Origin: Gammaproteobacteria bacterium
GTDB lineage: Bacteria; Pseudomonadota; Gammaproteobacteria; QZLD01
DNA: 64,000 bases
NCBI GenBank assembly: GCA_033852155.1
Contig: JAWSVA010000004.1
Span: 7,830-71,829 of the forward strand
Direction: 5' to 3'
This document shows positions 1 to 22,258 of this stretch, one piece after another. The translations under genes and the position numbers were made by a program. The notes below the pieces were generated by a model that was not told the origin of the DNA, searched no databases, and worked only from the letters and a program-made list of their open reading frames with translations. Each line of letters starts with the position of its first letter. Position 1 is the stretch's first letter.

Positions 1-626
1 ATCCCTGATGTAACCATATCTTTGACTTGTGCCGAACTTAGCATCATATCCTGCGGCAATTCTACCCCGGCTATCTCAGCGAGTTTGGCAACCAGGTCTT
101 TACGCTGAGACATCTCTAGGTATTTAACTCCTAGGCGTATTTTATTAGCTACATTAATTCTTTTATTTTGTGTAGATAGGTCATAATTACCAGCAAACTC
201 AGCAGGAAATCCATCTGACTCAAACAGTTCAATGGTTTCATATTCTGTTCTGCGAATTGTTTCTATTATTGAATCATTCCACATTATGCCGCCATCAATG
301 AACCCGGAAGCGATAAAAAAGGTTGCAGGGAGATCCCATTTTTTAAGTATTGGCAGTGCAAGCGTGTAGTTATTGGCGTAGCCATCGTCAAAGGTCATTA
401 CGACACTTCTCGGTGGAAGCTGCCCTTTTTGCAACAACTCTACGGCTTGCTTTAAAGATAGGACATTAAAGTGTTTTGCTAGTATGGAGCATTGCCAATC
501 AAGCTCTGCCTGTGTAAAAGAGTCTACGTAAGGATCATTTTCTGAAGTTATGCGGTGGTAGTCGATAATACTCAAACGGCATCGACTCCCCCCTCTTAGT
601 GACAACTCAAGAATTTTATTTATCAT
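1..626 (-). CDS. Polysaccharide deacetylase (NodB/CE4 family), 3' end truncated by the window edge. The start codon is at 624-626.
   Basis: Manual minus-strand translation from the ATG at 626 gives MINKILELSLRGG...VVMTFDDGYANNYTLALPILKKWDLPATFFIASGFIDGG. The TFDDG motif is typical of NodB deacetylases. It is not in the ORF track because the 3' end runs off the window. Confidence 0.6.
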   Translation of the reverse strand, partial: MINKILELSLRGGSRCRLSIIDYHRITSENDPYVDSFTQAELDWQCSILAKHFNVLSLKQAVELLQKGQLPPRSVVMTFDDGYANNYTLALPILKKWDLPATFFIASGFIDGGIMWNDSIIETIRRTEYETIELFESDGFPAEFAGNYDLSTQNKRINVANKIRLGVKYLEMSQRKDLVAKLAEIAGVELPQDMMLSSAQVKDMVTSG

Positions 627-662
627 TTTCCAAACATTTTATACTATATTACACAATGTATA

Positions 663-1985
663 TTAAACCAGTTTAGCACGCTTAAGCCCTTTTATTCCTC
701 GGCTTTTCCCTTGACGTTCATTTTCAATTGTTTTCTTAGACTCAAGCTGCTTTTTTACAATGCTCTCTGCAATTACCATAATGGCTATATAATGATAAGG
801 AAGGTCCCAATAAGCCATCCCTTTAAATGCACCGCCGATGGCCCAGCAGATCATGGCTATCTGCAGCATTGTCGCAAGATCCTTAGCCCAGGCTAAGTCT
901 TTATGCTCTCCAGCCAACTTTCTAATCTTGCCCCCTGTTATAAAACCAAAAAAGTTTAATAACAGGTACAGAATCAACCCTATAAATCCATGTTCACCTA
1001 AAACTTCAAAATAAATACTATGGGCATCACGCGCTATCTCCATCTCTTTATTATATTTTTCATAGGTTTTAAACGTGAACATCCTATAACCACCGCCAGT
1101 TAACGGGTGGTCTGTTGCAACCCATGTGGCAAGATACCAGGCATCGTAGCGCCCTTGCATTGAGAGATCCTCTTCATAGTCACCGATACTATCCATTCGT
1201 TGAAACCACTGCTGCGGCAAGACGTTATATGCTCCAATAGCTCCAATAGCAACCAGTAAAAAAATAACTTTTCTATGTTTGCTTAAATAAACCATCATGA
1301 AAAAACATGGGATTAAGGATATAAAAGCTCCTCGAGAATAAGATGCAATCACTGCCGCTGTACACAATCCCATGAACCCAAATAAACCAAAACGGATCCA
1401 TTTGTTATATGGTTGCAATTGTAAGTACCTGACCAAGGGAAGGATTAAAACTAACGCAATCGCTAACTCATTATTACCCGATATAAATGTATAATCAGGC
1501 CCCCAAACAAGATAATTCCCCCCTGTTGCTATCGCAAACAAACCACCTTTAACACCATAAAAACCTATGGATAAAACAATAACCCAAACCAATTGATTCA
1601 ATCTGTCTTTAGTATTTATTAGATATAAAGTAAGAAAAATTGCCAACTGTATTTTTAGCACCCTCATCCACTCTACATGTGCTAATTTTGGTTCAAAGGC
1701 GAACTGTGTGGTAATTGACATCCACACAACAAATAACAACAAAATAACAATCGCAGGTGTCCATGGTATCTTACGTTTCTCCATTTTATCTGGGCAAAAA
1801 ATAGCTGCAGCAATAGTAACTACGGCTATTACTAATGCGAATGGGAATGAATAAGCGAACCCATAGGTGAGGCGATGGGGACTCATATATCCAATCCAAG
1901 ACCACATTATTATTCCCAAATAGGGGCGATAAAAGATAAAGGGGATAGAACCAAAAACCGCCAGAAGAACTATTAGATCTCTCAT
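663..1985 (-). CDS. Polytopic membrane protein, O-antigen-ligase/Wzy_C-like. Resembles the exosortase-A-associated putative O-glycosylation ligase.
   Basis: 440 aa and highly hydrophobic, with about 10 or more predicted TM segments. It has a periplasmic loop of the kind seen in Wzy_C proteins. Its stop overlaps the upstream glycosyltransferase start by 4 nt, suggesting coupling. It is the last gene in the XrtA locus. Confidence 0.55.
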   Translation of the reverse strand: MRDLIVLLAVFGSIPFIFYRPYLGIIMWSWIGYMSPHRLTYGFAYSFPFALVIAVVTIAAAIFCPDKMEKRKIPWTPAIVILLLFVVWMSITTQFAFEPKLAHVEWMRVLKIQLAIFLTLYLINTKDRLNQLVWVIVLSIGFYGVKGGLFAIATGGNYLVWGPDYTFISGNNELAIALVLILPLVRYLQLQPYNKWIRFGLFGFMGLCTAAVIASYSRGAFISLIPCFFMMVYLSKHRKVIFLLVAIGAIGAYNVLPQQWFQRMDSIGDYEEDLSMQGRYDAWYLATWVATDHPLTGGGYRMFTFKTYEKYNKEMEIARDAHSIYFEVLGEHGFIGLILYLLLNFFGFITGGKIRKLAGEHKDLAWAKDLATMLQIAMICWAIGGAFKGMAYWDLPYHYIAIMVIAESIVKKQLESKKTIENERQGKSRGIKGLKRAKLV

Positions 1986-3208
1986 GAGCTTAATTTCCCA
2001 TCAATAATAGAAGTAAAGATATCCAGCTGGCCCTGAGTTGTTTGTCTCCAGCAATTTTCAGATCCAATCGCAGCCACTGTTTTCCTTTTCAACCCTTTAT
2101 TAAGCATTGTTCGTATTGCTTTGGTTAAAGCAGCATCGGTTCTATCATTTACTATTGTTCCGCATTCATCCGACAAGATCTCCGACACCCCACCTACATT
2201 TGTCGCCACTACTGGCGTTCCGCATGCAAGTGACTCTAATACTACATTGGGCATCCCCTCTCTACTAGATGCCAGCACCAATAGATCCGCTGAAGTATAA
2301 TAATCCCGTAACTGACTTTGTGATAAGTTTGAAATAAATCTTACACTATCAGATATCCTTAGATCAGCAGCCTGTTGTTGCAGGTTCTGCCTCTCCTCTC
2401 CATCACCAATTATAATTAAATTCACATTAGGTATTAGATTCGCATCAGACAATTTGGCAAGAGCAGCTATTACCAGATCAAATCCTTTTAACTTAGTAAG
2501 ATTACCAACAGATAAGATAGTATTTGGTTTGATATTTAACTTATTTCGTAAAATATTACGTTCATCAACCGATATGGGATGAAAAATTTCCTTATCCACT
2601 CCATTACGTAAAACATGGATTTTTTCCGCATCAACCCCTTTCGCAATTAGCTTTTGCCGTAGAGAATCTGCAACGGTAATTATGCTGTTGCTTTGTAGTG
2701 CTGATTTTTTAATCAATCTACCTGCTAACTGATAATCAGCAAATAGATTAACATCAGTTCCACGAGCCGTGATAACCAAAGGCTTATTTAGTTTTTTTGC
2801 CAAAATCGCAGCGGCAACACCATCTGGATAAAAATAGTGTGCATCGATAATATCAAAGTCAAAACCTTGGTTTATAAGACTTTTAACAACAGGTAGAGCA
2901 GCCCTTGCCATCATCATCGGGGTGATCGCGCCACCAAATTTTGGCAGGATAAAATACCTCGGATGATAAACATCTATACCGTTTAACGTTTCATGTTTTG
3001 GAACAGAATCAGATTCAGCATAACGTTTAAAAGCACCAGTTTTTATCGGAAAGGTTGCTATCGGAGCAACCACTTTGGTCTCTACCTGCTCTGATTTTAA
3101 TAGCTGACGCAGGCGTGTCTCAACGAATATGCCATGCCTGGGGCGCTGTGAATTTGGGTAGAGGGAGCTGAAAAGCAAGGTTTTGATCATTATACTCCTG
3201 AGCTCCAA
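1982..3208 (-). CDS. GT4-family (GT-B fold) glycosyltransferase
   Basis: 408 aa with a C-terminal EX7E-like region (SSREGMPNVVLESLACGTPVVATNVGG) typical of the RfaG/GT1 superfamily. Confidence 0.75.
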   Translation of the reverse strand: MELRSIMIKTLLFSSLYPNSQRPRHGIFVETRLRQLLKSEQVETKVVAPIATFPIKTGAFKRYAESDSVPKHETLNGIDVYHPRYFILPKFGGAITPMMMARAALPVVKSLINQGFDFDIIDAHYFYPDGVAAAILAKKLNKPLVITARGTDVNLFADYQLAGRLIKKSALQSNSIITVADSLRQKLIAKGVDAEKIHVLRNGVDKEIFHPISVDERNILRNKLNIKPNTILSVGNLTKLKGFDLVIAALAKLSDANLIPNVNLIIIGDGEERQNLQQQAADLRISDSVRFISNLSQSQLRDYYTSADLLVLASSREGMPNVVLESLACGTPVVATNVGGVSEILSDECGTIVNDRTDAALTKAIRTMLNKGLKRKTVAAIGSENCWRQTTQGQLDIFTSIIDGKLSS

Positions 3209-3416
3209 AGAAGTTTTTCAGGATAATAGGCTTTATATGCATTCCCACGCAGAGCATGGGAACGAGAAAAGTTCCCTGAGCGTAGCCGAAGGGTCGCCAT
3301 TCGTCCTGAGCCTGTCGAAGCATGATCAATGGGGTCAGAGTCAATGATTTTAAGATCCCTGAGCGTAGCCGAAGGGTCGAAAGAAAAAACATTGACTCTG
3401 ACCCCATTGATCTTAA
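3209..3416. repeat. Composite extragenic repeat element. It has a 23-bp perfect inverted repeat (3324-3346 and 3390-3412) and two direct copies of the 23-mer ccctgagcgtagccgaagggtcg (3274-3296 and 3357-3379), plus a degenerate third copy at 3301-3320.
   Basis: Read directly from the sequence. The element fills the gap between the asnB-like stop and the glycosyltransferase start. A related degenerate copy lies at 36203-36237. Confidence 0.7.
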
Positions 3417-5324
3417 TCATGCAAAAGTCTTCCTGCAAAATGCTTCAAACATTAACAGTGACCATAGCAGTGTACTAAAGTCACGCATTCCAGACTGGTG
3501 TTGTTCAACCAACCATTTAATATATTCCATATCAAATATTTCGGTATCAGCTAAAACTGGCCCCAACAGAGAATCACGCAAACGCTGTTTTAATGGGCCA
3601 CGAAACCACTCTGCCAACGGCACTGAAAACCCCATCTTTGGTCGATATAAAATTGAATCTGGAACCATTGGCTCTAGGGCTTTTTTAAAGATATATTTGC
3701 CTTCATTCCCTTTTACTTTGTATTCCGGCTTTATCCCAGATATCCACTCCACAAACTTGTGATCTAGAATAGGTACCCGCACTTCTAAACTGTGAGCCAT
3801 GCTGGCACGATCCACCTTAGTTAAAATATCACCAGGCAGGTAAGTTTTTAAATCGACATATTGAATACGGGAAAGGGAATCATCTTTTGGGCATTTATCC
3901 ATCTGTTCACGGAAAAACTGTTTAACGCTGTAGCCATTCAGATCTTGCTTAAACTTATTCGAGAATAACTTTCCACGCCATGCCTCTGGCACAAATGAAA
4001 CAGCATGCAGGTAGCCCTCTGCATCATCCATTGCCAATGACTGAAATGTAGATTTGGCACGAAACATCTGCGGCAACCAATCAAATTTAGGGTAGATTTT
4101 ACCCAAGAAACTAAATAACGGTCTTCGAATACAAGTAGGAATCTTATTGCGCACTTTGTTTTCATAAAATGCAAAACGATGGCGGCGATAACCAGACATC
4201 AGCTCATCTGCACCATCTCCTGAAAGAGATACGGTTACATGCTTACGCGCAAGTTCACAAACGCGATAGGTTGGAATAGCCGAGCTATCAGCATATGGTT
4301 CATCATAAATCGCTGCCAACTCATCGATCAGATCAAAATCATCAGCACCAACATGCTCAGAGTGATGATTAGTCTTATAGCGATCCGCTATCATCTGCGC
4401 ATATTCAGACTCATTAAATTTTTTACTTCCAAACGCAATCGAGCAGGTTTCTACCGGTTTGTCCGAAATCTTTGACATCAGAGCTACGATACCACTCGAA
4501 TCTACACCGCCTGATAAAAAAGCTCCAAGCGGTACATCAGCAATCATCCGCCCCTCAATTGCCTCACTTAACTTCTCAATGAGTTCTTTTTGGATCTCTT
4601 GCTCAGAAAGCTCAGAACCATTTTCTCCTACAAGATCTGCAAACGGAACATCCCAGTATTGGGTGATCTGCGGCTGTTTATCACCTAGTTTTATCTGCAA
4701 TAAATTACCAGGAGGCAGCTTATATACCCCGGTAAAAATAGTTTTGGGGTCTGGGATGTAACCAAGGGCAAAATAGTCCTCTACCGCTTGTATATCCATC
4801 TCACGTGAAACTGTTTTTTCAACCAGAAGAGATTTTAGCTCTGAGGCAAATAAAAAACGTCCATCTTCTAATACCGTATAAAAAATGGGCTTGATACCTA
4901 AACGGTCCCGAACTAGTGTGAGCTTTTGATCCCGTTTATCCCAAATTGCAAAGGCAAACATACCACGGAAGTGCTGAATACAATCCTCTTTCCAGGCATG
5001 CCAGGCATTTAGCATAACTTCGGTGTCCGACTTGGTATTAAACGCGTAACCTAGCTCTATTAACTCCTGCCTGACATCAGCAAAATTATAGGCCTCGCCG
5101 TTATAGACGAGAACCACTTGGTCATCCGCCGAGATCATGGGCTGCACGCCCCCGACTATATCTATAATAGAAAGGCGCCTATGCCCTAAAGCAATGCCTT
5201 GTTCCTGAAACACACCTTCGCCATCAGGACCTCGGTGAGTTTGAACATCATTCATCGCTTGCAACAAAGTGATATCGACCTGGCTTTCAGGTCTGGTCGC
5301 AAATATTCCTACAATCCCACACAC
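3417..5324 (-). CDS. Asparagine synthase (glutamine-hydrolysing) paralogue. This is the amidotransferase typically associated with XrtA/PEP-CTERM loci.
   Basis: It has the N-terminal MCGIVGI class-II glutamine amidotransferase Cys nucleophile and the SGGVDSS PP-loop ATP pyrophosphatase motif. It is 635 aa. It sits between glycosyltransferases in the exosortase locus. Confidence 0.8.
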   Translation of the reverse strand: MCGIVGIFATRPESQVDITLLQAMNDVQTHRGPDGEGVFQEQGIALGHRRLSIIDIVGGVQPMISADDQVVLVYNGEAYNFADVRQELIELGYAFNTKSDTEVMLNAWHAWKEDCIQHFRGMFAFAIWDKRDQKLTLVRDRLGIKPIFYTVLEDGRFLFASELKSLLVEKTVSREMDIQAVEDYFALGYIPDPKTIFTGVYKLPPGNLLQIKLGDKQPQITQYWDVPFADLVGENGSELSEQEIQKELIEKLSEAIEGRMIADVPLGAFLSGGVDSSGIVALMSKISDKPVETCSIAFGSKKFNESEYAQMIADRYKTNHHSEHVGADDFDLIDELAAIYDEPYADSSAIPTYRVCELARKHVTVSLSGDGADELMSGYRRHRFAFYENKVRNKIPTCIRRPLFSFLGKIYPKFDWLPQMFRAKSTFQSLAMDDAEGYLHAVSFVPEAWRGKLFSNKFKQDLNGYSVKQFFREQMDKCPKDDSLSRIQYVDLKTYLPGDILTKVDRASMAHSLEVRVPILDHKFVEWISGIKPEYKVKGNEGKYIFKKALEPMVPDSILYRPKMGFSVPLAEWFRGPLKQRLRDSLLGPVLADTEIFDMEYIKWLVEQHQSGMRDFSTLLWSLLMFEAFCRKTFA

Positions 5325-6535
5325 TATATTATTTTCCTTTGTGCAGTTTTCCCCTTCTCTTTTTCCAATACGCTTGAATAGAGATTGTCATATTTTGCTA
5401 CCATTGCAGCAAAACTAAAATTCTGTTGTATTCGCTCAATTGCATTCTTACCATGCTGCTGGCGTAACTGATCATCTTCTACATATTTATTCATTGCATC
5501 AGCCATCCACTTAGAATCAGAAGCCGGCACTATATATCCTGTTTTGCCATCATCAACTAGCTCGCGGTTACCACCAACATCAGTTGCAATTACTGGCAGT
5601 CCAGTAGCCATAGACTCTAATATAGTATTTGATATACCTTCAGCTAATGATGGTAAAACAAAAATATCTAGCTTATGTAAAATTGCTGGCACGTCATCTC
5701 TAGCCCCTGGCATCCAAACTAAATCTTGAATTGCGTTATCTTCAATAAGTTTTTCTGCAGGTGCAAACAAATTGCCATTCCCCACAAGAACCAAACGCAC
5801 TTTTTCTCTATGCTGCGGATGATTCTCAATAAAATGAACAAAGGCTCTGACCAATAGAAGGGTGTCCTTCACTTCCTCCATTCTGCCAACTGTTCCTATA
5901 ACAATTTTATCATCAAACTCTGCAGGATAACCTGCTACATTTGTTGTAACAGAAGGACTGAACCTTTCCGTGTCTACACCATTACATATACGCACAACTT
6001 TTTTAGAACTAATACCGACATCCTTAATCAACCAATTTTCTAAATCCATCGATAGAGCTGCGAAGCGATCAATAACTGGCGATAATAAACGACGTAAAAG
6101 CCGGTATTTTTTATTTGAGCCATCTATATCAATAGTATCTCTGCCATGCTCACTATGAATAATATATGGCACACCGGCTAAAAAGGCTGGCATTACAGCA
6201 TCCAGTGCTGGCAGGTTTCTGGTGTGTACAACCTTTGGCTTTAACTTTTTTAACATCCGATAAAGCTTAATGTAAATTTTTATATCTTTACCTGGGTGCT
6301 TATGCAGAGATATATATTCAACCTCACGGTTGGTTATACGATCTTTAAAGTGGGTGATCTCAGTGAGTGAAATCACAATATGACGATACTTATCCTGTGG
6401 CAGATTATTCAAAAGATTTACCACGCCGTTTTCCAACCCACCTACGTCGAGCCGAAAAAGCACGTGCGCAATTATTGGCCTGCTATCCACAATTTTTTTA
6501 TTTGCTATTATGCTTCCTGCACTACTACTATCCAT
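5324..6535 (-). CDS. GT4-family glycosyltransferase. This is a sugar transferase of the PEP-CTERM/EpsH1-associated type.
   Basis: 403 aa with a C-terminal PSLAEGISNTILESMATGLPVIATDVGG GT-B motif. Its start overlaps the xrtA stop. Confidence 0.75.
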   Translation of the reverse strand: MDSSSAGSIIANKKIVDSRPIIAHVLFRLDVGGLENGVVNLLNNLPQDKYRHIVISLTEITHFKDRITNREVEYISLHKHPGKDIKIYIKLYRMLKKLKPKVVHTRNLPALDAVMPAFLAGVPYIIHSEHGRDTIDIDGSNKKYRLLRRLLSPVIDRFAALSMDLENWLIKDVGISSKKVVRICNGVDTERFSPSVTTNVAGYPAEFDDKIVIGTVGRMEEVKDTLLLVRAFVHFIENHPQHREKVRLVLVGNGNLFAPAEKLIEDNAIQDLVWMPGARDDVPAILHKLDIFVLPSLAEGISNTILESMATGLPVIATDVGGNRELVDDGKTGYIVPASDSKWMADAMNKYVEDDQLRQQHGKNAIERIQQNFSFAAMVAKYDNLYSSVLEKEKGKTAQRKII

Positions 6536-9420: not shown

Positions 9421-10473
9421 TTATCCAAGATTTTTAGAGATCATTGGGCCAATAACGCGACAAAGACCAAGAGGCAACTTCTTCCAAGTATCGATAAAAA
9501 ATTTATACTTTGGATTATTAGGGTTAATCTCTGGCATCTTATCTGCTTTTACCAAATAGTATTGATACGGAAGCGGTTCTGGTACAAATCCCCAGTTCTT
9601 TTTAAAACTATAGGCCCCAGTTCCCTCTTTACTACGGCCAAAATCAAAAATTCTACACCCTTTTTCTGCTGCGCGACGCATCACTTCCCAATACATAAAA
9701 TCATTGCCTGCAAGTGATCGAGCAGAATCTTTACCACCGCCGTAATAAGGCAATACTGCATCACGAAAATAAAAATTCATAACACTGGCAACCACTTCAC
9801 CTTCATGGGTAATAGTTACTATTTCACACTTATCTTTAAATACATCTTTAAGAATCTGGAAATATTTTTTCGCAAAGACTGGAGTTCCCAATCTCCAAAC
9901 ACTAAAGGAATACGCATCAAAAAAACGTTCAATATCTTCGTCAATCTCACTTTGTAAGCCAGCTTTAATACCCTTACGCACCATCGCCCTTTGCTTGCGA
10001 GGGATAGCTGACATATTCTCATCGTCATCAGAGCTTATCTCTTTACTAAAGGTTACATACAGCTCTTTAGTTGGCCATTCTGGATTATTTATTTTCCGTT
10101 CACGCAGTTCAAGACTATCTACCTTTAGCTGATCCGCCAGTTTACAAGCCTGCTGTTCCAGTAATTCCCTTACATCATCAGAATCTGCTATTGCCCCACC
10201 ATATACAGTAAAAGGCATACTCACTAAATTATTACCAAATAACATACTCTTTACATGGCCGAGAGGAAGCACACCTACTATCTTGCCACTAGATTCTCCA
10301 TCCGCAACAGATTCGGCATAATACATATAAGTCTTATGACCAAAGGCCTTTTCAATAACTGCTTGCCACTCCGCTAAATGGAAAAAAGTGCCATCAGCAT
10401 TATTAGTGACGTATTGATTCCAATCCGCATATTTATCTTTAGTAAGTAGTTTTATCGCTAATGCTTCGTTCAT
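9421..10473 (-). CDS. FemAB-family (GNAT-fold) protein of the type associated with XrtA/PEP-CTERM systems.
   Basis: 350 aa cytoplasmic protein. It is the expected size and occupies the locus position of the exosortase-associated FemAB-like proteins. Recognition is by context and general composition and is moderate. Confidence 0.55.
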   Translation of the reverse strand: MNEALAIKLLTKDKYADWNQYVTNNADGTFFHLAEWQAVIEKAFGHKTYMYYAESVADGESSGKIVGVLPLGHVKSMLFGNNLVSMPFTVYGGAIADSDDVRELLEQQACKLADQLKVDSLELRERKINNPEWPTKELYVTFSKEISSDDDENMSAIPRKQRAMVRKGIKAGLQSEIDEDIERFFDAYSFSVWRLGTPVFAKKYFQILKDVFKDKCEIVTITHEGEVVASVMNFYFRDAVLPYYGGGKDSARSLAGNDFMYWEVMRRAAEKGCRIFDFGRSKEGTGAYSFKKNWGFVPEPLPYQYYLVKADKMPEINPNNPKYKFFIDTWKKLPLGLCRVIGPMISKNLG

Positions 10474-15182: not shown

Positions 15183-16134
15183 AGTAAGGATTTGAATTTC
15201 TTGTCCTTGATTTATTTAAAACAAGATTAACAATATCGTTATCATCCAGTATATCAACTGCTTTTTTTACATTTTCATGAGAGGTTGAGTAAGACTCAAC
15301 AACCAATACAACCTGCCCAACAATGTCAGCTAAAACCTTTGCTTCACTTGTAATAAGAAGAGGAGGTGAATCCAGAATAACAGCACGATCATTATATCTT
15401 TGTGAAATCTCATCTATAAGCGATAGCATTGCGCTACTTGCAAGAATTTCAGTTGCTTTTTCATGCCCGCTTCCTGCTGGTAGTATTACTAGGTTTTCAA
15501 TATTAGTTTTAACCAATACGTCGGTCATTTTAATAGTGTCATCAACCAATAAATCAATTAGCCCCGGTAAATCAGGGTCCAAACCAAGATATTCACTTAT
15601 CGATGGTTTAGGAATATCTGCATCGATAAGCAAAACCGTTGTATCCATCTCTGTAGCCATGCTCATAGCCAAGTTAATTGATGTAAAAGTTTTCCCTTCA
15701 CCAGGTAAGGCACTAGTTACCATTATAATATTAGAGTTATCGAACTCTTTAGATGCTGCCCCAAATGCATTATTTAGAATAGGCCTTTTAATAATTCTAA
15801 ACTCTTCAACTAAAGAATTATCATCTCTACTTGAAGTGATAATATTTTTGCTTTCAAGCTTACGCAAATCAATTTTCTGAGGTTTTGCGCTAGTTATGAT
15901 ATTTGATTCGCTTTCAGCCGCAATCTGACTTTGTCTATTAGCCGAATTAGAGTTATCTTTATTTTTGGAAGCTTTTCCCGGCTCATTCCAAAATTCAGCT
16001 GGATTTAACTCATCATTATATTCTTCTTCAATACGTTTACGATAATCTTGCTGATCTTTTTGTTCATCTACACTTGAACTTTCAGCTGAACCACTCTTTT
16101 TTAGTTTGTTAAATGCATTTTCTATAGTGCTCAT
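15151..16134 (-). CDS. BY-kinase ATPase subunit. This is the Wzc C-terminal-like tyrosine autokinase (EpsG type).
   Basis: 327 aa. It has Walker A ALPGEGKTFTSINLA, Walker A' VLLIDADIPKPS and Walker B VILDSPP. The C-terminal tail is Tyr-rich: PYYGSSYRRQYK. Confidence 0.7.
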   Translation of the reverse strand: MSTIENAFNKLKKSGSAESSSVDEQKDQQDYRKRIEEEYNDELNPAEFWNEPGKASKNKDNSNSANRQSQIAAESESNIITSAKPQKIDLRKLESKNIITSSRDDNSLVEEFRIIKRPILNNAFGAASKEFDNSNIIMVTSALPGEGKTFTSINLAMSMATEMDTTVLLIDADIPKPSISEYLGLDPDLPGLIDLLVDDTIKMTDVLVKTNIENLVILPAGSGHEKATEILASSAMLSLIDEISQRYNDRAVILDSPPLLITSEAKVLADIVGQVVLVVESYSTSHENVKKAVDILDDNDIVNLVLNKSRTRNSNPYYGSSYRRQYK

Positions 16135-16135
16135 A

Positions 16136-17752
16136 TTAACCTACCAATTGAGTCAGCTTAGCGGCCAGATCTATTCCAGCATAGTGGATAAAAACAATAG
16201 TTATAAAAAAACAAAAATATATTACAAATCCAAGAGAAAACGTCATTATCTCAAACTTACGTTTTATTTTTCTTCTGCTATCGACTACTAAAGATACAGC
16301 TCCTAAAATAGGTCTATCGGCTATTTTCTCTAACGTCTTTTGACTATCAACTATTGGTTTTATCTGCCCTAAAAAGAAAGCAAAGAAAATACCACAAGCA
16401 AGTGAAGCCAGCATAACCACAGCTGAAAAAATAATTCTCGGGGGACCAGATGGATTAAATCCAACATATGGAGGATCAACAACATCAAAGTTAACGTTAT
16501 CAGTTCTTTGCTCCACATTTTGCGATATTAATGCAGACTCTTTTCGATCGACTAAAGCCTCATAATTTTTCTTATGTATACTATAATCTCTATTCAAGCT
16601 TTTTAATTCTGCTTCTACAGCTGGTATGATATCAATCTTAGCTTTTAACTTCTCTACCCTGTCCTGATATTCCACCAGCCTTGCTTTTGATACCGCTAAA
16701 TCAGCTTCCGTATTTCCATAGGATATCAATAGTTCCTGATAGATCGGGTTGGTATTAAGCATATCAAGAGGATTAGCATTTATTTTTGCAACCACATCTT
16801 GCTCAATTTTTTCCATGTCTGCTGCACGCTTCGATTCCAACTGAGAAAGCATTGCTTGAGCTTGAACTACATCTGGATGCTCATCAGTAAACCGTAGTTT
16901 AAGATTTCTTAAAGTATCCTTGTATTCTTCAATATCACTATCTAAATCGTGTTCAAAATCTTTACTTAATTTTTCACCTGAGCTTCTTTCAGAAACTTTT
17001 TTAGCTTCCTCAATGGCGTCTTTTTTCTGCTTATCTATAAGCTTTTGTAATCTCTTGCGCTTATTTTTCAACTCTGTATTTACAAGTCTATGCTTTTCCA
17101 GGTCATCTAAAGCACGCTGCATTCTGACATAATAGCCACCGCTATCACCAGGCATCTCACCAACATGTTCTCTTTTAAACTCTTTTAAACTGTTTTCAGC
17201 CTCTTCAAGTTTTTCTTTGTATTCATCAATTTGCTGATCAAGAAATGCTTGAGCAACATCAGTATCCTTTCTATTAGCACCCAGAGTGCTCTCAATAAAA
17301 ACTGTTAATATTGAGCTTACTACTTTTTTAGCTACCACTGGATCTTCATGAACATAGATAATTTTGTATTGGTCTTTTTGCAGATATCGACCAATTTTAA
17401 TTTTTTTCTCTAGTTGCTTAAGCAGTTTCTCTTCATCTTCTTCAGAGCTAACCTCAATATCTAAATCCGCCATCCTCGCAATTTGCTGTAGCTTAGGACG
17501 GGTAAATAGACGGATTTTTATCTGGCGCACTCTTTCTGAAAGATTAGTTGTTACTACAAGCCTGCCTAAAAGTGGTTTTAGAATTGATTCAGTATCAGCA
17601 TAAACAGTCGCAGTTGCTTCATACTGATCAGGAAGCTGTGCTACGACCCCCCAGCCTAAAACACCAACAAACCATGCGACAGCCAACATTACCCAGCGAA
17701 AACGCCAGACACTTCTTAGATATGTGAATAACTTATCTATAAATTCAAGCAT
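16136..17752 (-). CDS. Polysaccharide chain-length determinant (Wzz/Wzc N-terminal-like) of the PEP-CTERM locus subfamily (EpsF type).
   Basis: 538 aa. There is an N-terminal TM segment, a long coiled-coil periplasmic region and a C-terminal TM segment. It sits immediately upstream of the split kinase subunit. Confidence 0.7.
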   Translation of the reverse strand: MLEFIDKLFTYLRSVWRFRWVMLAVAWFVGVLGWGVVAQLPDQYEATATVYADTESILKPLLGRLVVTTNLSERVRQIKIRLFTRPKLQQIARMADLDIEVSSEEDEEKLLKQLEKKIKIGRYLQKDQYKIIYVHEDPVVAKKVVSSILTVFIESTLGANRKDTDVAQAFLDQQIDEYKEKLEEAENSLKEFKREHVGEMPGDSGGYYVRMQRALDDLEKHRLVNTELKNKRKRLQKLIDKQKKDAIEEAKKVSERSSGEKLSKDFEHDLDSDIEEYKDTLRNLKLRFTDEHPDVVQAQAMLSQLESKRAADMEKIEQDVVAKINANPLDMLNTNPIYQELLISYGNTEADLAVSKARLVEYQDRVEKLKAKIDIIPAVEAELKSLNRDYSIHKKNYEALVDRKESALISQNVEQRTDNVNFDVVDPPYVGFNPSGPPRIIFSAVVMLASLACGIFFAFFLGQIKPIVDSQKTLEKIADRPILGAVSLVVDSRRKIKRKFEIMTFSLGFVIYFCFFITIVFIHYAGIDLAAKLTQLVG

Positions 17753-17780: not shown

Positions 17781-18404
17781 CTAAAACCATGACTCAGGAA
17801 TTATAATTGTATCACCAGGCATCATAGGAACATTTGCTGATATATCACCATCTTTTATCAAATCACCCAGGCGCACTCTATATTGTTTTGAAACTCCATT
17901 TTCTTTTCTAATAATAGAAGCCATATTTCCTGATGCATTGACCGTTAATCCACCAACTGAGATCACAATATCGAGTACTGTCATACCTGACCTGTAAGGA
18001 ATTGCTATGGGCCTTCCTGCCTCACCTATAACGCGAACTAACTGTCCATATTCACCCGCAAACACTTTAACTAATACAGTTACTTGAGGATTCCGAATAT
18101 ACTTTTTAAGTAGTTTTTCAATTTCACGCGCTAAAGCTGAAGGAGTTTTACCCGCTGCAACAAGGTCTTCAATTAATGGGGTGTTTATTTTTCCATCAGG
18201 TCTTACAGGAATTTCAACAGAGAGATCAGCATTCCTCCATACGAATATATCTAGTCCATCTCCTGGACCAATAAGATAATCAATAGATTTACTCTTACCA
18301 ATTGACGTTGGAGCTTCCGGATAACTTGCCACACACCCAGTAATAGCACCAAAAAAAACCAGATAAGCAACTAATTTTGCTATAAAAAATTTCATCATTA
18401 CCAC
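17781..18404 (-). CDS. Polysaccharide export protein (Wza/EpsE-like lipoprotein)
   Basis: 207 aa. The signal peptide carries a lipobox-like ITGC. The PGDGLDIFVW and DGDISANVPMMPGDTIIIP motifs are typical of the Wza/soluble-ligand-binding beta-grasp family. Confidence 0.7.
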   Translation of the reverse strand: MVMMKFFIAKLVAYLVFFGAITGCVASYPEAPTSIGKSKSIDYLIGPGDGLDIFVWRNADLSVEIPVRPDGKINTPLIEDLVAAGKTPSALAREIEKLLKKYIRNPQVTVLVKVFAGEYGQLVRVIGEAGRPIAIPYRSGMTVLDIVISVGGLTVNASGNMASIIRKENGVSKQYRVRLGDLIKDGDISANVPMMPGDTIIIPESWF

Positions 18405-18538
18405 CTACTATACGATAAATGAACAAAAAGAGATTATTTAGCCTACAACATTAACAATAAAAAAGTTACGGACAACATTCCATGATTCTGCCGCACTTAA
18501 TAGAATAAGAATAATTTAGAAATCTACTTTTAGCAATT

Positions 18539-18566
18539 AAAAAAGGCTGCATAAGCAGCCTTTTTA
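18539..18566. terminator. Rho-independent, apparently bidirectional terminator immediately after the PEP-CTERM gene.
   Basis: The hairpin aaggctgc-ataa-gcagcctt is flanked by an A-run (18539-18544) and a T-run (18561-18565). Confidence 0.6.
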
Positions 18567-18585
18567 TTTCAAAGCAGTTAAAGAT

Positions 18586-19344
18586 TTACTTTCTTTTTCT
18601 ACTTACAAATCCAAATGCAGCTAATCCAAGACCAAAAATGGCTAATAAAGCTGGCTCAGGAATAGCTTCAACAGACTCAACCATAACTACAAAGTCAGTA
18701 TAGTCTTTATCTGATGTTGCTAGAGGCATATCTTCCCATGCAAGAATATACTCATCTGCTGTCCAAGTTCCTTTATCAGCTCCTGGCAATTCAATCTCAT
18801 CACCCTGCCCCTGATACGCAACCATGTGATCATCACCTTTCACATCACCATCAGCTGATTCATTTAAAATTGCTTGTGAATAATAAATCTCACCGCTACC
18901 TGAGTTCAGATAATAACCAAAACGATCGCGCTCAAACAAACCAGCCTTATATCCAACAAAAGCATTCTCATCATCTAAAGTTACAACAGAAACCACTCCA
19001 GCTGCATTGATAGATAGCGTAGATTTATAGCCAGCCACATGATCGCCAGCAAATAACTCAATTGAATTAAGTGGGTTTGAATAATCATATACACCAAATG
19101 AGTTTATATTTTCATACCCAGCAAGCTCAATTACCAAAGTAGCAAAAGACCCTCCAGATGCGGTTAACGACCAAAGCTCGTCATTTCTCATCTGGTCAGT
19201 ATGAACGTTTACAGAAGAATCTCCGACAACAGTGATATCATTTAAAACACCTTGCAGGGCATTGCCCTTAACAACAGTAGCTGAAGCAGTGCTCGCTAGC
19301 ACAAGCAAAGTTGTTGCAATTAGTGACGTCAAAAGTTTTTTCAT
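18586..19344 (-). CDS. PEP-CTERM sorting-domain protein. This is the exosortase substrate.
   Basis: 252 aa. It has a signal peptide MKKLLTSLIATTLLVLASTASA. The C-terminus IPEPALLAIFGLGLAAFGFVSRKRK gives the PEP motif, a hydrophobic TM helix and a basic tail. This is the canonical tripartite PEP-CTERM signal. Confidence 0.85.
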   Translation of the reverse strand: MKKLLTSLIATTLLVLASTASATVVKGNALQGVLNDITVVGDSSVNVHTDQMRNDELWSLTASGGSFATLVIELAGYENINSFGVYDYSNPLNSIELFAGDHVAGYKSTLSINAAGVVSVVTLDDENAFVGYKAGLFERDRFGYYLNSGSGEIYYSQAILNESADGDVKGDDHMVAYQGQGDEIELPGADKGTWTADEYILAWEDMPLATSDKDYTDFVVMVESVEAIPEPALLAIFGLGLAAFGFVSRKRK

Positions 19345-19393: not shown

Positions 19394-19411
19394 TAGCAAC
19401 AACCATACCAA
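19394..19411 (-). promoter_or_regulatory. Candidate sigma-54 (-24/-12) promoter for the PEP-CTERM gene.
   Basis: The minus strand reads TGGTATG-gttg-TTGCT, against the consensus TGGCACG-N4-TTGCW, with exact spacing. It is located about 50 nt upstream of the ATG. Confidence 0.45.
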
Positions 19412-19513
19412 CATTAAAATATTCTTATTTATCAAAATAATAATCAAGCATTGCATATTTCACAAAGCACTCAATGTAAAATATGCTGACACAATTTAAA
19501 AACTATTTTTACG

Positions 19514-22258
19514 TCACTCCCCAATCATCTCCAATAACTCTATGGCCTCTTGCCTAATTTTTGTATTGAATGATTTACCATTTATTGAATCTTTTAATAC
19601 GTCTCGCGCAGTGATCTCATCGCCATTTGCAATTAGTGCCTGCGCATAATGCAACGCAATCTCCTGATCCCCTTTTCTTTTTCTATGCGCCACAACCAAC
19701 TTATCCAATGCTTCTTTAACTTTTCCAGCCTTAAGCAATATAACCCCATATGTATCAATTATCTCTGGTTGATTCTGAGCTAACAAATATGCTTTTTGCG
19801 CATATTCTAAAGCCAATTGAAAATCGTCCTCAATTGATATGAATGCTAAATTATTCAGTGCCAATATATGATTAGGAGCATCTTGCAATATATTTTTAAA
19901 TTCAATTTTAGCTTTTTCAACCATACCTGACTGCAACAAGGAATCTGCTAATATATACCTAACTGCAATATCTCTTGGATTATTCTCCAACCACTTTTGC
20001 AGTACATCAATTCCTTTTCCAGCCTCTTTTATAGTGTAATAAGCCTTTGCTAACTGAACTGCTGCCTTGGGTGATTTGCTTATTGATAAAGCTTGCTCAT
20101 AATAACTTATTGCAGCTTCACTATCCCCTGTTGCAAACTTATACCTACCAAGTAAAACTAGTTTATCTGCATTATTTCCAACCTTTCCAATATCTGCAAT
20201 GAGCTTACCAGCTTTTTTGATTTCACCTTCAGTAATATATATATGGGCTAAACTCAGCTTCGATGGAATATGATTTGGGTTTTCCCTTAAAGCCTTTTTA
20301 ATGTTCAATTTGGCCCTTCGAGAATCCCCCACCCTTTCATAAACCTTTGCCAATAAATAGTACGCTATTGGTGAATTAGGTTGAGCCCCTATCATCTTTC
20401 CATAAGCTGACACGGCACTTGCTGGCGCATTCATAGCAAGATATATATCACCTAAAAACTTTAAAGCAAAAACATTATCAAGATTTAATTGTGGTGGCTT
20501 TCGAAGCACTTCTAAGGCACTAAATGGATCTCTGGATTGTATAAAAAAATTAGCCAAAGCTAATCTTGCCTCTAGCGACTCTGGATAGATTTTAACCCAT
20601 GTTTGCAGATATCCCATCGCGCTATCAAGCCTGCCAGACTTTGCTGCCAAATTCGCAATCTGAGGCAAAATAAGAGGGTGATTTGAAAACTTTTCAAGAC
20701 AATTTAAAAAGACTTTTTCAGCCTCTTGCACCTTATTTTGCTTAACCAACATCTTACCTAGGTGCAGGGTTGCCAGAGGATCCGCTATTCTGTTTTGTAA
20801 CGCGATCAAAAACGATCTCTCTGCCTCTTCATATTTATTGTTTTTTACAAACACCATCCCATTTAAAGTATGAGGTAAGGCGCTTTCAGGAAGTGCATTA
20901 GCAAACTTTGCAGCTTCATCACTGGCTTCTGATAATTTTTCTACCCTGATATAAGCCAATATTAATAATATCTGCGTCTGAATATTTTCTGGATATTCGC
21001 CAATTATAGACTCAAGGGTAGCTTGTTCCGAAACTGCGCCAATAAAATTAGATTGGCCATCAAGATCCCATTGAAGCATAAATGCTTTTTGCAATATTGG
21101 AACAGCATCATTTATCTCACCAAGCCCCATAAGTATTTTGCCATATATAAGTACAACAGAAGGGTCTTCAGGTAACTTCTCAATAACTGGTTTTATTACC
21201 AGTTTTGCTTGCTCTAACTTATTTGCTTTTACCAAAACCTTAGTTAAAATTTTTCTGGCATGATAATTATCTGGATTCTTGACTATAACTTTATTTAGAT
21301 TCTTTTCTGCCTGCTCTAGATTCCCAAGTTCAAAATACACCCCGCCTAAAAAAAGCCAGGTCTCTATTGAGTCTGGAGCAGATTTTAATGAACTTTCAAA
21401 AAAATCTTTTGCATCGATGAAGTTTCCTTTGCGCATTGACAAAAGGCCCTTAGCAAAAAAATACGTGGGGTGATCAAGGATCTTATTTTTAATTTGGGCT
21501 AAATCTAATTCAGCTTTTTCGAGCTCATTTATTCTAATTCTAAGTAAGGCGCGATGCATATAGGCTGTTAATGACAACCCCTCATTATTATCAATTACAA
21601 CCGAATATGATTTTTCAGCTTCTTCATATATTTTTAACCTGCTTTCAACTCTACCTTTTAATAACCAGGCACTATAGTGCTCTGGATATTTAACTACAGT
21701 TTCCTCAAGAAGTTTCTGTGCTGTTTTATAATTCCCCTGATAAACACTGTATTTGATTTGGACCATTTGAATTGAAAGATTTTCAGCATCTAACCCAATA
21801 CCCATTTCAATATAAGTATAGGCCTTACCCCCTTCACCTAGTCCCATATGTGCTTCAGCCATTGCAGCATAAACATTTGCTCTTAGCTTTGTGCTGAAGC
21901 TTTCACTTATCTCTATCTCGTCAATAACCTTTCTATACTCACCCTGTTTTAGAAGGGTCTGCATTAAGGCTGGATAAATTGCTTTTTTGTCAACACCAAG
22001 CTGCAAAGCAGCCTTTAATTCTTTTTCCGAGCTTTCCCACTTAGCAAGATCATTGTATATAAGACCTAATAACCACCTGGCTTCTGCATTTTTAGAGTTA
22101 AACTTCAGCGCATTTTTTAATTCAATTACGCTTGATTCAAGATCTCCCTGCTGTTGAAACCCTTTTGCCTTTCTAATATATTCGATATCAGACAGCTGTT
22201 TTTCCCCACATGATGTTAACAAAATGATTGCCAACATTATTGATGCAATTATTTTCAT
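19514..22258 (-). CDS. prsT: PEP-CTERM-system TPR-repeat lipoprotein (PrsT type)
   Basis: 914 aa. The lipoprotein signal is MKIIASIMLAIILLTSCGE. The protein is almost entirely TPR repeats. It lies adjacent to the PEP-CTERM gene. Confidence 0.75.
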   Translation of the reverse strand: MKIIASIMLAIILLTSCGEKQLSDIEYIRKAKGFQQQGDLESSVIELKNALKFNSKNAEARWLLGLIYNDLAKWESSEKELKAALQLGVDKKAIYPALMQTLLKQGEYRKVIDEIEISESFSTKLRANVYAAMAEAHMGLGEGGKAYTYIEMGIGLDAENLSIQMVQIKYSVYQGNYKTAQKLLEETVVKYPEHYSAWLLKGRVESRLKIYEEAEKSYSVVIDNNEGLSLTAYMHRALLRIRINELEKAELDLAQIKNKILDHPTYFFAKGLLSMRKGNFIDAKDFFESSLKSAPDSIETWLFLGGVYFELGNLEQAEKNLNKVIVKNPDNYHARKILTKVLVKANKLEQAKLVIKPVIEKLPEDPSVVLIYGKILMGLGEINDAVPILQKAFMLQWDLDGQSNFIGAVSEQATLESIIGEYPENIQTQILLILAYIRVEKLSEASDEAAKFANALPESALPHTLNGMVFVKNNKYEEAERSFLIALQNRIADPLATLHLGKMLVKQNKVQEAEKVFLNCLEKFSNHPLILPQIANLAAKSGRLDSAMGYLQTWVKIYPESLEARLALANFFIQSRDPFSALEVLRKPPQLNLDNVFALKFLGDIYLAMNAPASAVSAYGKMIGAQPNSPIAYYLLAKVYERVGDSRRAKLNIKKALRENPNHIPSKLSLAHIYITEGEIKKAGKLIADIGKVGNNADKLVLLGRYKFATGDSEAAISYYEQALSISKSPKAAVQLAKAYYTIKEAGKGIDVLQKWLENNPRDIAVRYILADSLLQSGMVEKAKIEFKNILQDAPNHILALNNLAFISIEDDFQLALEYAQKAYLLAQNQPEIIDTYGVILLKAGKVKEALDKLVVAHRKRKGDQEIALHYAQALIANGDEITARDVLKDSINGKSFNTKIRQEAIELLEMIGE

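Follow-up and report, generated by a model that had tools for sequence, protein, structure and literature searches.

The window, a 64-kb stretch of DNA from an uncultured gammaproteobacterium (host GC about 38%), carries on its minus strand, from position 22258 down to position 1, genes for exopolysaccharide (EPS) synthesis and genes of the exosortase A (XrtA)/PEP-CTERM protein-sorting system (Table 1). The genes named in the original prediction all lie where it had placed them, but it listed neither the amidotransferase nor the FemAB-like protein, and neither of the two deacetylases. The family assignments, made by NCBIfam and Pfam profile searches, are well past chance level. Nearly every gene of the system has a dedicated NCBIfam model, and the curated models for XrtA, EpsI, PrsT and 11 accessory families score above their cutoffs. 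The sole XrtA-system match under its cutoff is that of the ATPase, which falls short by 5 bits (319.6 against 324.5) in a full-length match (1-268 of 269) and bears a C-terminal extension of about 100 aa. The gene order is common to about 80 gamma- and betaproteobacterial loci; it is the same in the nearest relative (L001), with 79-97% amino-acid identity for 15 of the 19 query proteins, those inside the compared span.

Table 1. Genes and DNA features of the XrtA/PEP-CTERM EPS locus (scores in bits, model cutoffs in parentheses)
Feature	Position	Strand	Evidence or remark
Second polysaccharide deacetylase, last locus gene	3..626	-	Pfam Polysacc_deac_1, translation
Wzy_C/O-antigen-ligase-like polytopic membrane protein, exosortase A system-associated (PEP_O_lig_1)	663..1985	-	TIGR03097 489 (188)
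Generic GT4 glycosyltransferase, 402 aa from ATG at 3190	1982..3190	-	Best hit TuaC-like, 209
Non-coding intergenic repeat element	3191..3416	.	28-nt inverted repeat and 28-nt direct repeat
XrtA/PEP-CTERM system amidotransferase (AsnB-like)	3417..5324	-	TIGR03108 989 (817)
PEP-CTERM/XrtA system glycosyltransferase stp2 (GT4)	5324..6535	-	TIGR03088 516 (409)
Exosortase A (XrtA) fused to EpsI	6535..8136	-	TIGR03109 and TIGR02914
PEP-CTERM/XrtA system glycosyltransferase stp1 (GT4)	8191..9387	-	TIGR03087 513 (317)
FemAB-family XrtA/PEP-CTERM system-associated protein	9421..10473	-	TIGR03019 490 (260)
XrtA-system polysaccharide deacetylase	10486..11343	-	TIGR03006 451 (276)
UDP-GlcNAc 2-epimerase WecB	11398..12534	-	TIGR00236 300 (210)
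XrtA/PEP-CTERM system-associated AAA_22 (ExeA-like) ATPase	12591..13694	-	TIGR03015, Pfam AAA_22
PEP-CTERM system-associated outer-membrane protein	13740..15182	-	TIGR03016 104 (90.85)
XrtA-associated tyrosine autokinase, BY-kinase half of split Wzc	15151..16134	-	TIGR03018 268 (231)
XrtA-system polysaccharide chain-length determinant, PCP half of split Wzc	16136..17752	-	TIGR03007 468 (279)
XrtA/PEP-CTERM system EPS export lipoprotein, short Wza-like	17781..18404	-	TIGR03027 228 (180)
Intrinsic-terminator-like hairpin AAAAAGGCTGC-TTAT-GCAGCCTTTTTT	18539..18565	-	21 nt past cargo stop codon
PEP-CTERM cargo	18586..19344	-	Signal peptide, DUF4114, PEP-CTERM tail
Sigma-54 -24/-12 promoter (predicted) TGGTATGGTTGTTGCT	19395..19410	-	50 nt 5' of cargo ATG
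Putative PrsR enhancer site TGTCAGCATATTTTACA, 17 nt, ends TTTACA	19475..19491	-	64 nt 5' of sigma-54 promoter
TPR-repeat lipoprotein PrsT	19514..22258	-	TIGR02917 565 (312)
Secreted 269-aa protein, two tandem ~95-aa repeats	22366..23175	-	No family

A long operon runs from 18404 to about position 1, with prsT and the cargo gene as separate units outside it. It specifies EPS machinery of the Wzy-dependent type (Wza-like exporter, split Wzc, outer-membrane protein, WecB, glycosyltransferases and Wzy_C-like protein), the XrtA-EpsI fusion and polymer-modifying enzymes (deacetylase, FemAB-like, AsnB-like). Short or overlapping junctions had been described throughout, and 13 of 16 are at most 56 nt or overlapping; the description fails for the other three, between exporter and cargo (181 nt), cargo and prsT (169 nt), and GT4 and amidotransferase genes (226 nt). 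With these long junctions and a cargo gene that is its own unit, 'single string' was an overstatement. So was 'complete', because a priming sugar transferase (EpsB2-type phosphoglycosyl transferase) is missing from the 64-kb window, no flippase is recognisable in the window or locus by NCBIfam searches, and no PrsK/PrsR-like protein occurs among the remaining ORFs of the window, which are housekeeping genes; the absence of PrsK/PrsR had been noted correctly.

The span down to position 1 also stands, except that the last gene crosses the window edge, with aa 1-208 of 321 inside. The full-length 321-aa deacetylase, a generic CE4 enzyme distinct from the XrtA-specific deacetylase model, is found on contig L081, followed by ParE/RHH genes, and the locus ends about 340 nt left of the edge. 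On the same contig the generic GT4 gene has a counterpart with a 402-aa gene call; the best score of the window gene, TuaC-like, is under every cutoff, and the gene is outside the system-specific families. The repeat element next to this gene is probably an inserted REP/MITE-like element foreign to the system proper. The PEP_O_lig_1 protein has the Pfam domains DUF5935 and Wzy_C, the chain-length determinant has TM segments close to either end, and the lipoboxes are ITG/C in the export lipoprotein and LTS/C in PrsT (slash, cleavage). The outer-membrane protein gene overlaps its upstream gene by 32 nt, which suggests that its start is over-extended. Beyond prsT, the secreted 269-aa protein has no NCBIfam match, only a weak MG2-like match in Pfam and only 46 homologues; it adjoins prsT in close relatives too and is a possible member of the system. 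Some XrtA loci carry hydrolase, acyl-CoA ligase, ACP and decarboxylase genes (TIGRFAMs descriptions); these are absent from this locus.

The identity of the sorting enzyme was checked, as had been proposed, against exosortase models and for the Cys/Arg/His triad, and is borne out by both. Against a cutoff of 208, the protein reaches 329 bits with the XrtA-specific model TIGR03109; the general exosortase model gives 242 bits, and the EpsI domain (aa 397-526) scores 43.6 bits (cutoff 42.8); the Pfam matches are Exosortase_EpsH (240 bits) and DUF3485 (44.9 bits). The XrtA part covers aa 28-286, and hydropathy places a linking TM helix at about aa 327-345. Cys196, Arg241 and His262 are invariant in an alignment of 81 of 81 homologues, among which the fusion to EpsI is the norm, and constitute the putative active site.

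The cargo has a predicted signal peptide cleaved after ASA22 and ends in AIPEPALLAIFGLGLAAFGFVSRKRK, consisting of IPEP, a TM helix and SRKRK. This tail passes both PEP-CTERM models, PF07589 (24.2 bits, cutoff 20.7) and TIGR02595 (18.2 bits, cutoff 16), the comparison that had been suggested for telling it from an ordinary TM anchor. P229, E230 and P231 are conserved in at least 90% of 70 cargo homologues (62 of the 70 have PEP), while the helix sequence drifts; homologues without PEP have alternative exosortase-type tags instead, and in other lineages the same mature domain bears other such tags, for example VPLPA-CTERM. Such variation of the tag on one mature domain fits a modular sorting signal better than an ordinary TM anchor. 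The cargo gene is flanked by prsT and the XrtA-system exporter gene, both in the window and on L083, L084 and L085, the three related contigs that were examined. Only one cargo had been predicted to be visible, and a six-frame regex scan of the 64 kb indeed found one tail. Genomes with a working system usually carry many, and the single visible cargo counts against the explanation preferred below.

The sequence around the cargo gene indicates that it is a transcription unit of its own, with a PrsR-type upstream motif, a sigma-54 promoter and a terminator. The promoter TGGTATGGTTGTTGCT is the sole 0-mismatch match to TGGYAYRNNNNTTGCW across the 64 kb; the site is identical in L083, and near-consensus but partly degenerate in L084 (-12 element TTGT) and L086. 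It is the counterpart of motif 2 in Haft et al. (2006; PMC1569441). The putative PrsR site TGTCAGCATATTTTACA is conserved in L083 and L084 and matches motif 1 of the same study in format and in its 64-nt spacer (mean 62.8 nt in that study). A consensus terminator scan did not pick up the hairpin; RNAfold gives an MFE of -22.7 kcal/mol, computed over the entire 91-nt stretch around it (18500..18590).

The mature cargo domain is probably a Ca2+-dependent lectin of the LecB/PA-IIL type. It is a predicted LecB-like beta-sandwich assigned to DUF4114 (0.7 bits over cutoff), a domain linked to Ca2+ and sugar/EPS binding and known from Myxococcus PilY1.1 and the Acanthamoeba mannose-binding protein. 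The family keeps an acidic motif, ED...D.DY.D, like that of DUF4114 proteins and the PA-IIL/LecB Ca2+-dependent fucose/mannose lectins (PDB 1gzt). At the sequence level, however, the assignment is weak: identity to LecB is only 17%, hhalign gives a probability of 13%, hmmsearch of PDB sequences did not recover LecB, and Foldseek against PDB returned no match at E <= 0.001 (TM-scores <= 0.27). The domain is about twice the length of LecB and has four extra residues inserted in the presumed Ca2+ loop; unlike LecB, the cargo also has a signal peptide at one end and a PEP-CTERM tail at the other.

The prototype of the PEP-CTERM/EpsH (XrtA) system is the eps (methanolan) cluster of Methylobacillus sp. 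12S, with EpsH and EpsI (PMC1569441). The present locus is an EPS locus of that kind and draws on the same protein families; it has an XrtA with an EpsI domain, PrsT, and a single-gene PEP-CTERM unit with a large upstream region containing motif 1 and a sigma-54 site. It differs in that EpsI is fused to XrtA, where Methylobacillus has a separate gene, and in having neither PrsK/PrsR nor the priming transferase alongside. The floc-formation systems of Aquincola tertiaricarbonis RN12 and Zoogloea resiniphila MMB, which were studied experimentally, comprise pepA-prsT, epsB2-prsK-prsR and a large EPS cluster (PMC9850573). In Aquincola pepA is RpoN-dependent and adjoins prsT with a terminator in between, epsB2-prsK-prsR lies at a separate locus, and PepA converts soluble to bound EPS (PMC9850573). 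Here also the PEP-CTERM gene adjoins prsT and has its own predicted -24/-12 promoter and terminator, and by analogy the cargo may serve to retain EPS on cells. However, the order is prsT then cargo rather than pepA then prsT, both genes directly adjoin the XrtA EPS operon, and the regulators and priming transferase, placed at another locus in those organisms, are not found in the window. The cargo was rejected as a PepA orthologue (NF033554, 27 bits against a cutoff of 80); it is a lectin-like DUF4114 protein. Sortase A/LPXTG, archaeosortase ArtA/PGF-CTERM, rhombosortase/GlyGly-CTERM and myxosortase/MYXO-CTERM are other C-terminal sorting systems (10.1101/2023.06.07.544157; PMC11980579), which share with XrtA a tripartite signal (motif, TM helix, basic tail) and a dedicated membrane enzyme. 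Exosortases and archaeosortases also share the Cys/Arg/His signature. XrtA is a polytopic membrane protein of a fold unrelated to sortase A.

That EpsH/XrtA-like proteins act as Wzx/Wzy-like flippases or polymerases for polysaccharide, the PEP-CTERM gene being an unrelated neighbour, was suggested for Methylobacillus EpsH by Yoshida et al., as quoted in PMC1569441, and would suit a locus with no recognisable flippase. It is highly improbable here, given an invariant triad of the kind found in cysteine proteases or transpeptidases, a separate Wzy_C-like protein already in the locus, methanolan synthesis unaffected by EpsH disruption, and a family definition that rests on strict phylogenetic co-occurrence with PEP-CTERM tails (PMC1569441). 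The cargo could instead be a periplasmic protein held permanently in the inner membrane by its C-terminal helix, with no XrtA processing, and its PEP-CTERM scores are modestly above cutoff, as with any 24-residue model. Conservation of the PEP residues over a drifting helix, exosortase tags such as VPLPA-CTERM on the same mature domain, the constant position next to prsT and the exporter, and a PrsR/sigma-54 site of the sort that PEP-CTERM genes carry make this very unlikely.

The single tail in 64 kb, the window's lack of PrsK/PrsR and the repeat element inserted between two operon genes could also point to a decaying remnant, in which EPS may still be made but protein sorting no longer functions. 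Yet every ORF and the XrtA catalytic residues are intact, the cis-regulatory site matches consensus perfectly, order and identity are preserved in L001, and such systems normally have PrsK/PrsR and the majority of their cargo genes at separate loci (PMC1569441; PMC9850573); decay is very unlikely. The locus is very probably a canonical proteobacterial exosortase A/PEP-CTERM EPS locus, a type that Haft et al. (2006) defined.

In the proposed mechanism, PrsK/PrsR encoded at another locus would turn on the cargo gene via sigma-54, and Sec would export the pre-protein, whose C-terminal helix and basic tail would keep it in the inner membrane. From family knowledge, XrtA, using Cys196/Arg241/His262, would then cut at or near the PEP motif and either free the mature domain or pass it to an acceptor. 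The lectin-like domain may then reach the cell exterior and bind the polysaccharide of the same locus, which would stay cell-associated as a floc or biofilm matrix. The XrtA/PEP-CTERM system itself is already known, described in 2006 (PMC1569441); a mildly notable detail of the locus is that its in-cluster cargo is a candidate Ca2+-dependent sugar-binding lectin with a predicted sigma-54 switch of its own.

The minus-strand genes that run without interruption from 22258 down to the window's left end (ORF list) constitute an instance of the XrtA/PEP-CTERM system, which was defined in 2006 (PMC1569441). The testable defining features of XrtA, EpsI, the PEP-CTERM domain, PrsT, the PrsR cis-site and the accessory families are all present, with no departure in kind from the published, already known system. 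NCBIfam scans against curated cutoffs, supplemented by Pfam, place nearly all the genes named in the original prediction in curated XrtA/PEP-CTERM families (Table); the inventory was real as far as it went, and it left out an amidotransferase, a FemAB-like protein and the deacetylases. Ten of the eleven accessory families of XrtA-type EPS loci (exporter, chain-length determinant, tyrosine kinase, outer-membrane protein, ATPase, deacetylase, FemAB, stp1, stp2, amidotransferase and O-ligase) score above their NCBIfam cutoffs, the exception being the ATPase. The ATPase aligns with TIGR03015 over its full length yet falls 5 bits short, and it has a charged C-terminal extension of about 100 residues (269-367) outside the model. 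The PrsT match spans positions 4-896 of the 899 in TIGR02917, and lipoboxes are found in PrsT (LTS/C, residues 14-17) and in the exporter (ITG/C).

Table. Coordinates of the XrtA/EPS locus, the cargo regulatory elements and other features of the window
Feature	Position	Strand	Family or remark
Second deacetylase (first 208 residues)	3..626	-	polysaccharide deacetylase
O-ligase-like	663..1985	-	TIGR03097, 489 bits
Generic GT4	1982..3190	-	no system-specific family
Gap with repeat element	3191..3416		226 nt
Direct repeat (28 nt)	3269-3296 and 3352-3379
Inverted repeat (28 nt)	3324-3351 / 3385-3412		96% complementary
Amidotransferase	3417..5324	-	TIGR03108, 989 bits
stp2	5324..6535	-	TIGR03088, 516 bits
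XrtA	6535..8136	-	TIGR03109, 329.3 bits (cutoff 208)
EpsI domain, aa 397-526	6535..8136	-	TIGR02914, 43.6 bits (cutoff 42.8)
stp1	8191..9387	-	TIGR03087, 513 bits
FemAB-like	9421..10473	-	TIGR03019, 490 bits
Deacetylase	10486..11343	-	TIGR03006, 451 bits
WecB	11398..12534	-	300 bits
ATPase	12591..13694	-	TIGR03015, 319.6 bits (cutoff 324.5)
Outer-membrane protein	13740..15182	-	TIGR03016, 104 bits (cutoff 91)
Tyrosine kinase	15151..16134	-	TIGR03018, 268 bits
Chain-length determinant	16136..17752	-	TIGR03007, 468 bits
Exporter	17781..18404	-	TIGR03027, 228 bits
Hairpin and T6, 3' of cargo	18565..18539
Cargo	18586..19344	-	PEP-CTERM protein
Cargo sigma-54 site	19410..19395		TGGTATGGTTGTTGCT
Cargo motif 1	19491..19475	-	TGTCAGCATATTTTACA
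PrsT	19514..22258	-	TIGR02917, 565 bits (cutoff 312)
Secreted protein (269 aa)	22366..23175	-	no NCBIfam family
DUF1631 protein	24805..27180	+
Small PilZ protein	36285..36635	-
tRNA	53188..53261	+
cNMP-binding + HDOD protein	53909..55192	+
flgA-flgM-flgN-PilZN cluster	59167..61715	+

As predicted, XrtA scores against exosortase models, and the XrtA-specific model beats those of the other subtypes; the next best, XrtW, XrtD, XrtV and XrtB, all lie far below their own cutoffs. It also reaches 72 bits with the TIGR04178 signature (cutoff 23) and matches the Pfam 'Transmembrane exosortase' family at full length (positions 2-254 of 254). The exosortase Cys/Arg/His triad, C196 (in ACSGIR), R241 (ANGLR) and H262 (FDHIIYGW), is invariant in 81/81 aligned homologues. 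A crude Kyte-Doolittle scan gives multiple hydrophobic segments, in keeping with the polytopic architecture of the family, which has about 8 transmembrane helices. The EpsI domain is recognized by Pfam DUF3485 (44.9 bits, cutoff 26.1) and marginally by TIGR02914, with a transmembrane helix N-terminal to it at about residues 327-345. Sequence lengths in the 81-sequence alignment concentrate at 500-533 aa, which makes fusion of XrtA to EpsI the usual state within that set. The nearest homologue (84% identity) is from the Gammaproteobacteria MAG PJM12_PHB_gam1, and the remainder, at 30-54% identity, are from Competibacteraceae, Methylococcales and Oxalobacteraceae among others. A genome-collection scan yielded 80 loci with XrtA homologues, taken with 10-kb flanks that end before cargo and prsT; tblastn of the window proteins finds like accessory genes in the same order around XrtA in about 80 related loci. 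The original prediction had named three outcomes that would count against it: no exosortase score, no catalytic residues, and a cargo tail that is an ordinary anchor without genome-wide association with xrtA. Given the XrtA score, the triad in 81 sequences and the shared accessory genes, it withstands all three.

The junctions, supposed to be short or overlapping, mostly are so, but three are long: GT4-amidotransferase (226 nt), exporter-cargo (181 nt) and cargo-prsT (169 nt). At the left edge, translation and Pfam identify the start of a second polysaccharide deacetylase that leaves the window. In L081, a public contig with an identical O-ligase gene, this deacetylase is complete (321 aa) and is followed by a convergent ParE/RHH toxin-antitoxin pair, which places the end of the locus about 340 nt beyond window position 1. 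The ParE-toxin/RHH-antitoxin pair lies on the opposite strand directly after the last EPS gene (L081 3602..4155), and L001, the nearest relative, is arranged likewise (18351..18904). The ORF of the outer-membrane protein and the tyrosine-kinase gene share 32 nt, and the former shows a signal-like hydrophobic segment only from about residue 28; the true start of the outer-membrane protein therefore probably lies downstream of the listed ATG. As for the polymer, WecB, two CE4 deacetylases, and FemAB-like and AsnB-like enzymes suggest that N-acetylated amino sugars are probably among its constituents and that these undergo partial deacetylation and other modifications.

The generic GT4 and the amidotransferase are separated by a gap that contains a compact repeat element built of a direct and an inverted repeat. 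Its core, GACCCTTCGGCTACGCTCAGGGA, has no other copy in the window and is found exactly in 11 metagenome contigs, a few of them near-identical to each other, with flanks that are otherwise unrelated. Most of these copies look intergenic, and one metagenome contig (L101) carries a tandem array with a 33-nt period. The element has no Rfam family, and L001, the closest relative, lacks it; the sequence resembles a REP/MITE-like element that has inserted recently. Two small ORFs in the gap (82 and 95 aa) were rejected as genes because they have no tblastn match in related loci and consist of repeat-derived sequence.

The cargo has both signals expected of an exosortase substrate. By inspection, a Sec signal peptide, MKKLLTSLIATTLLVLASTASA, is predicted before TVV, and the C-terminal tail, AIPEPALLAIFGLGLAAFGFVSRKRK, ending at the stop codon, comprises the PEP motif, a hydrophobic helix and a basic cluster. 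The tail scores as PEP-CTERM, as had been proposed, with both PF07589 (24.2 bits, cutoff 20.7) and TIGR02595 (18.2 bits, cutoff 16). A six-frame regex scan of the 64 kb gives no second PEP-CTERM tail, in agreement with the single cargo seen earlier; two matches in 45-aa ORFs were dismissed as junk. Haft's profile required >2 PEP-CTERM proteins per genome (PMC1569441). A protein 100% identical to the cargo is already public, on an NCBI contig of 120,678 bp. A database search returned 392 relatives, nearly all of about 250 aa and annotated as DUF4114 + PEP-CTERM. That the cargo might be an orthologue of the flocculation-associated PepA was considered; the match to NF033554 is confined to the tail and reaches 27.2 bits (cutoff 80), which assigns the cargo to a different PEP-CTERM family. 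Within its own family, an alignment of 70 sequences shows at least 90% conservation of the PEP tripeptide. The motif is found in 62/70 homologues; in the others the shared mature domain ends in VPLPA-CTERM or VPAPG-type tails, the pattern expected of an exchangeable sorting tag. The DUF4114 cargo family illustrates how tags are swapped between exosortase subtypes. Homologues with PEP replaced by VPLPA-CTERM or VPAPG/VPVPA-type tails include P0051, P0086, P0067, P0072, P0099 and P0106, and one source names the Thioflavicoccus homologue 'VPLPA-CTERM sorting domain-containing'.

The cargo gene is predicted to be its own regulatory unit. Upstream is motif 1, the putative PrsR enhancer site TGTCAGCATATTTTACA, then a 64-nt spacer, then a sigma-54 (-24/-12) site, TGGTATGGTTGTTGCT, from which 50 nt lead to the ATG (19344). 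This geometry, compared by described format and spacing, fits the PEP-CTERM cis-site of Haft. There, a 17-nt element that terminates in TTTACA is separated by 62.8 nt on average from a -24/-12 motif, which precedes the start codon by a mean of 71 nt; the arrangement is tied phylogenetically to PrsK, PrsR and PrsT (PMC1569441). TGGTATGGTTGTTGCT is the sole perfect match to the consensus TGGYAYR-N4-TTGCW in 64 kb, and motif 1, searched for with a pattern taken from this very site and relaxed at N positions, has a single match in the window. Sigma-54 and motif-1 matches with 1-2 mismatches were dismissed, as they occur at chance-level numbers and inside genes. At the other end, a hairpin (GGCTGC-TTAT-GCAGCC) followed by T6 lies 21 nt 3' of the stop codon; a sigma-70/terminator consensus scan gave counts equal to those of shuffles and missed this terminator. 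The slot between prsT and the exporter is also where cargo homologues of 74% and 64% identity are encoded, and those at 49% and 43% are stand-alone genes. Among related contigs, the upstream motifs are essentially identical in L083, and L084 keeps motif 1 and has TTGT as the -12 element.

What the mature cargo does is suggested by its fold and its acidic residues. The AlphaFold model, from the 70-sequence alignment, is confident (pLDDT 90.3), and the fold is counted as PA-IIL-like, with no match at E <= 0.001 and TM-scores of at most 0.27 in a Foldseek search of the PDB. E204, D205, D212 and D217 are invariant in the alignment and D214 is at least 90% conserved; these residues lie in AWED....SDKDYTDFVVMVES. 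The acidic Ca2+-binding loop of LecB comprises E95, D99, D101, N103 and D104. Hhalign pairs cargo 210-223 with LecB 98-111 (GTDNDYNDAVVVIN) at a low probability of 13%. A search of PDB sequences with the cargo-family profile returned no LecB, and a GDSL lipase at E 0.5 was set aside as chance. DUF4114 has been related in print to PA-IIL-type lectins with a Ca2+ pocket, with EPS binding proposed for Myxococcus PilY1.1 (PMC9109919), and mannose binding has been demonstrated for the domain with DUF4114 in the Acanthamoeba mannose-binding protein (PMC11934332). On the strength of the acidic residues and these published links, the cargo is probably a secreted lectin, and probably a Ca2+-dependent one.

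A more specific reading, which we consider improbable, is that the cargo would be a dedicated EPS 'glue', a LecB-like Ca2+-dependent lectin for the polymer that the adjacent genes produce, and that its activity would be coupled to sorting through XrtA cleavage, which would create the C-terminus that completes the Ca2+/sugar site. The Ca2+/sugar site of a LecB subunit is completed by the free carboxylate of Gly114 from its neighbour. The PEP motif of the cargo begins 12 residues after D217, the last conserved Ca2+-ligand-like Asp, with an invariant VVMVESV strand between, so cleavage at PEP would put the new C-terminus near the position of LecB Gly114. If this were true, exosortase cleavage would be a maturation step, sugar binding being switched on only outside the inner membrane.

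The regulators PrsK (TIGR02916) and PrsR (TIGR02915), which had been said to lie outside the window, are indeed not encoded by any of the ORFs of 100 aa or more that lie outside the locus; these are housekeeping, flagellar or chemotaxis genes. The window appears to follow the pattern of Aquincola tertiaricarbonis, where the PEP-CTERM gene pepA, a neighbour of prsT, possesses a terminator and a mapped -24/-12 promoter that depends on RpoN, and where epsB2-prsK-prsR are at another locus (PMC9850573); this arrangement would explain the regulators 'missing' here. The priming sugar transferase of the system, EpsB2 (TIGR03013), has no gene in the window, an absence that is expected and not disqualifying since the Aquincola EpsB2 sits with prsK/prsR. 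No flippase was found in the window either.

Between the aldolase gene and prsT, in a position kept in close relatives, is the gene for a secreted protein that contains a tandem pair of repeats, each of about 95 aa (pattern K.YxPGE.IKV.F.A......NAW.G.I.S...H....ND.H.L..Y.......G.M.F...L..GKYD.RM.DS..G.EV..V.F.V). Pfam gives just a sub-threshold MG2-like match, and 46 homologues were found among 5.8 billion proteins, some in WOR-3 and Deltaproteobacteria. To the right of 24.4 kb all is housekeeping: fab genes, holB, tmk, mltG, RNase E, lolA, and flagellar and chemotaxis genes. The large DUF1631 protein gene is divergent from the aldolase gene, with synteny kept in relatives. The sole match of an Rfam scan of the whole window is one tRNA, immediately 3' of the RNase E gene; the locus itself has none. 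The DUF1631 gene may have a role in signalling, as may the genes for a small PilZ protein and a cNMP-binding + HDOD protein and a flgA-flgM-flgN-PilZN cluster (Table). The PilZ domains among the window genes suggest that the motile/sessile switch may be under c-di-GMP control.

The gene content, catalytic signature, sorting tail, lipoprotein signals and regulatory motifs established here can be combined with knowledge of the family into a sorting mechanism. PrsK/PrsR and sigma-54 would switch on the cargo gene, Sec would export the product, and the PEP-CTERM helix would retain it in the inner membrane until XrtA cuts at or near PEP; the lectin domain would then arrive at the cell exterior and tie the polysaccharide of the locus to the cell. 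Published working models are consistent with these steps (PMC9850573; PMC12188702), and in Aquincola overexpression of pepA shifts soluble EPS to bound EPS (PMC9850573). There is little new biology in this: almost every gene here already has a curated NCBIfam model, and the logic of a PrsR site and sigma-54 promoter on a monocistronic cargo beside prsT has been demonstrated in Aquincola and Zoogloea. The variations are minor and lineage-specific, namely the in-locus cargo, its lectin-like character, the conserved secreted protein by prsT and the small repeat element in the operon. The practical value of the locus is as a compact example, with a single in-locus cargo of recognizable lectin-like fold. 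Such a cargo could be a convenient substrate for finding where XrtA cuts and to what the cleaved protein becomes attached, and it offers a functional guess, EPS-binding lectin, for the widespread DUF4114/PEP-CTERM family of about 250 aa.
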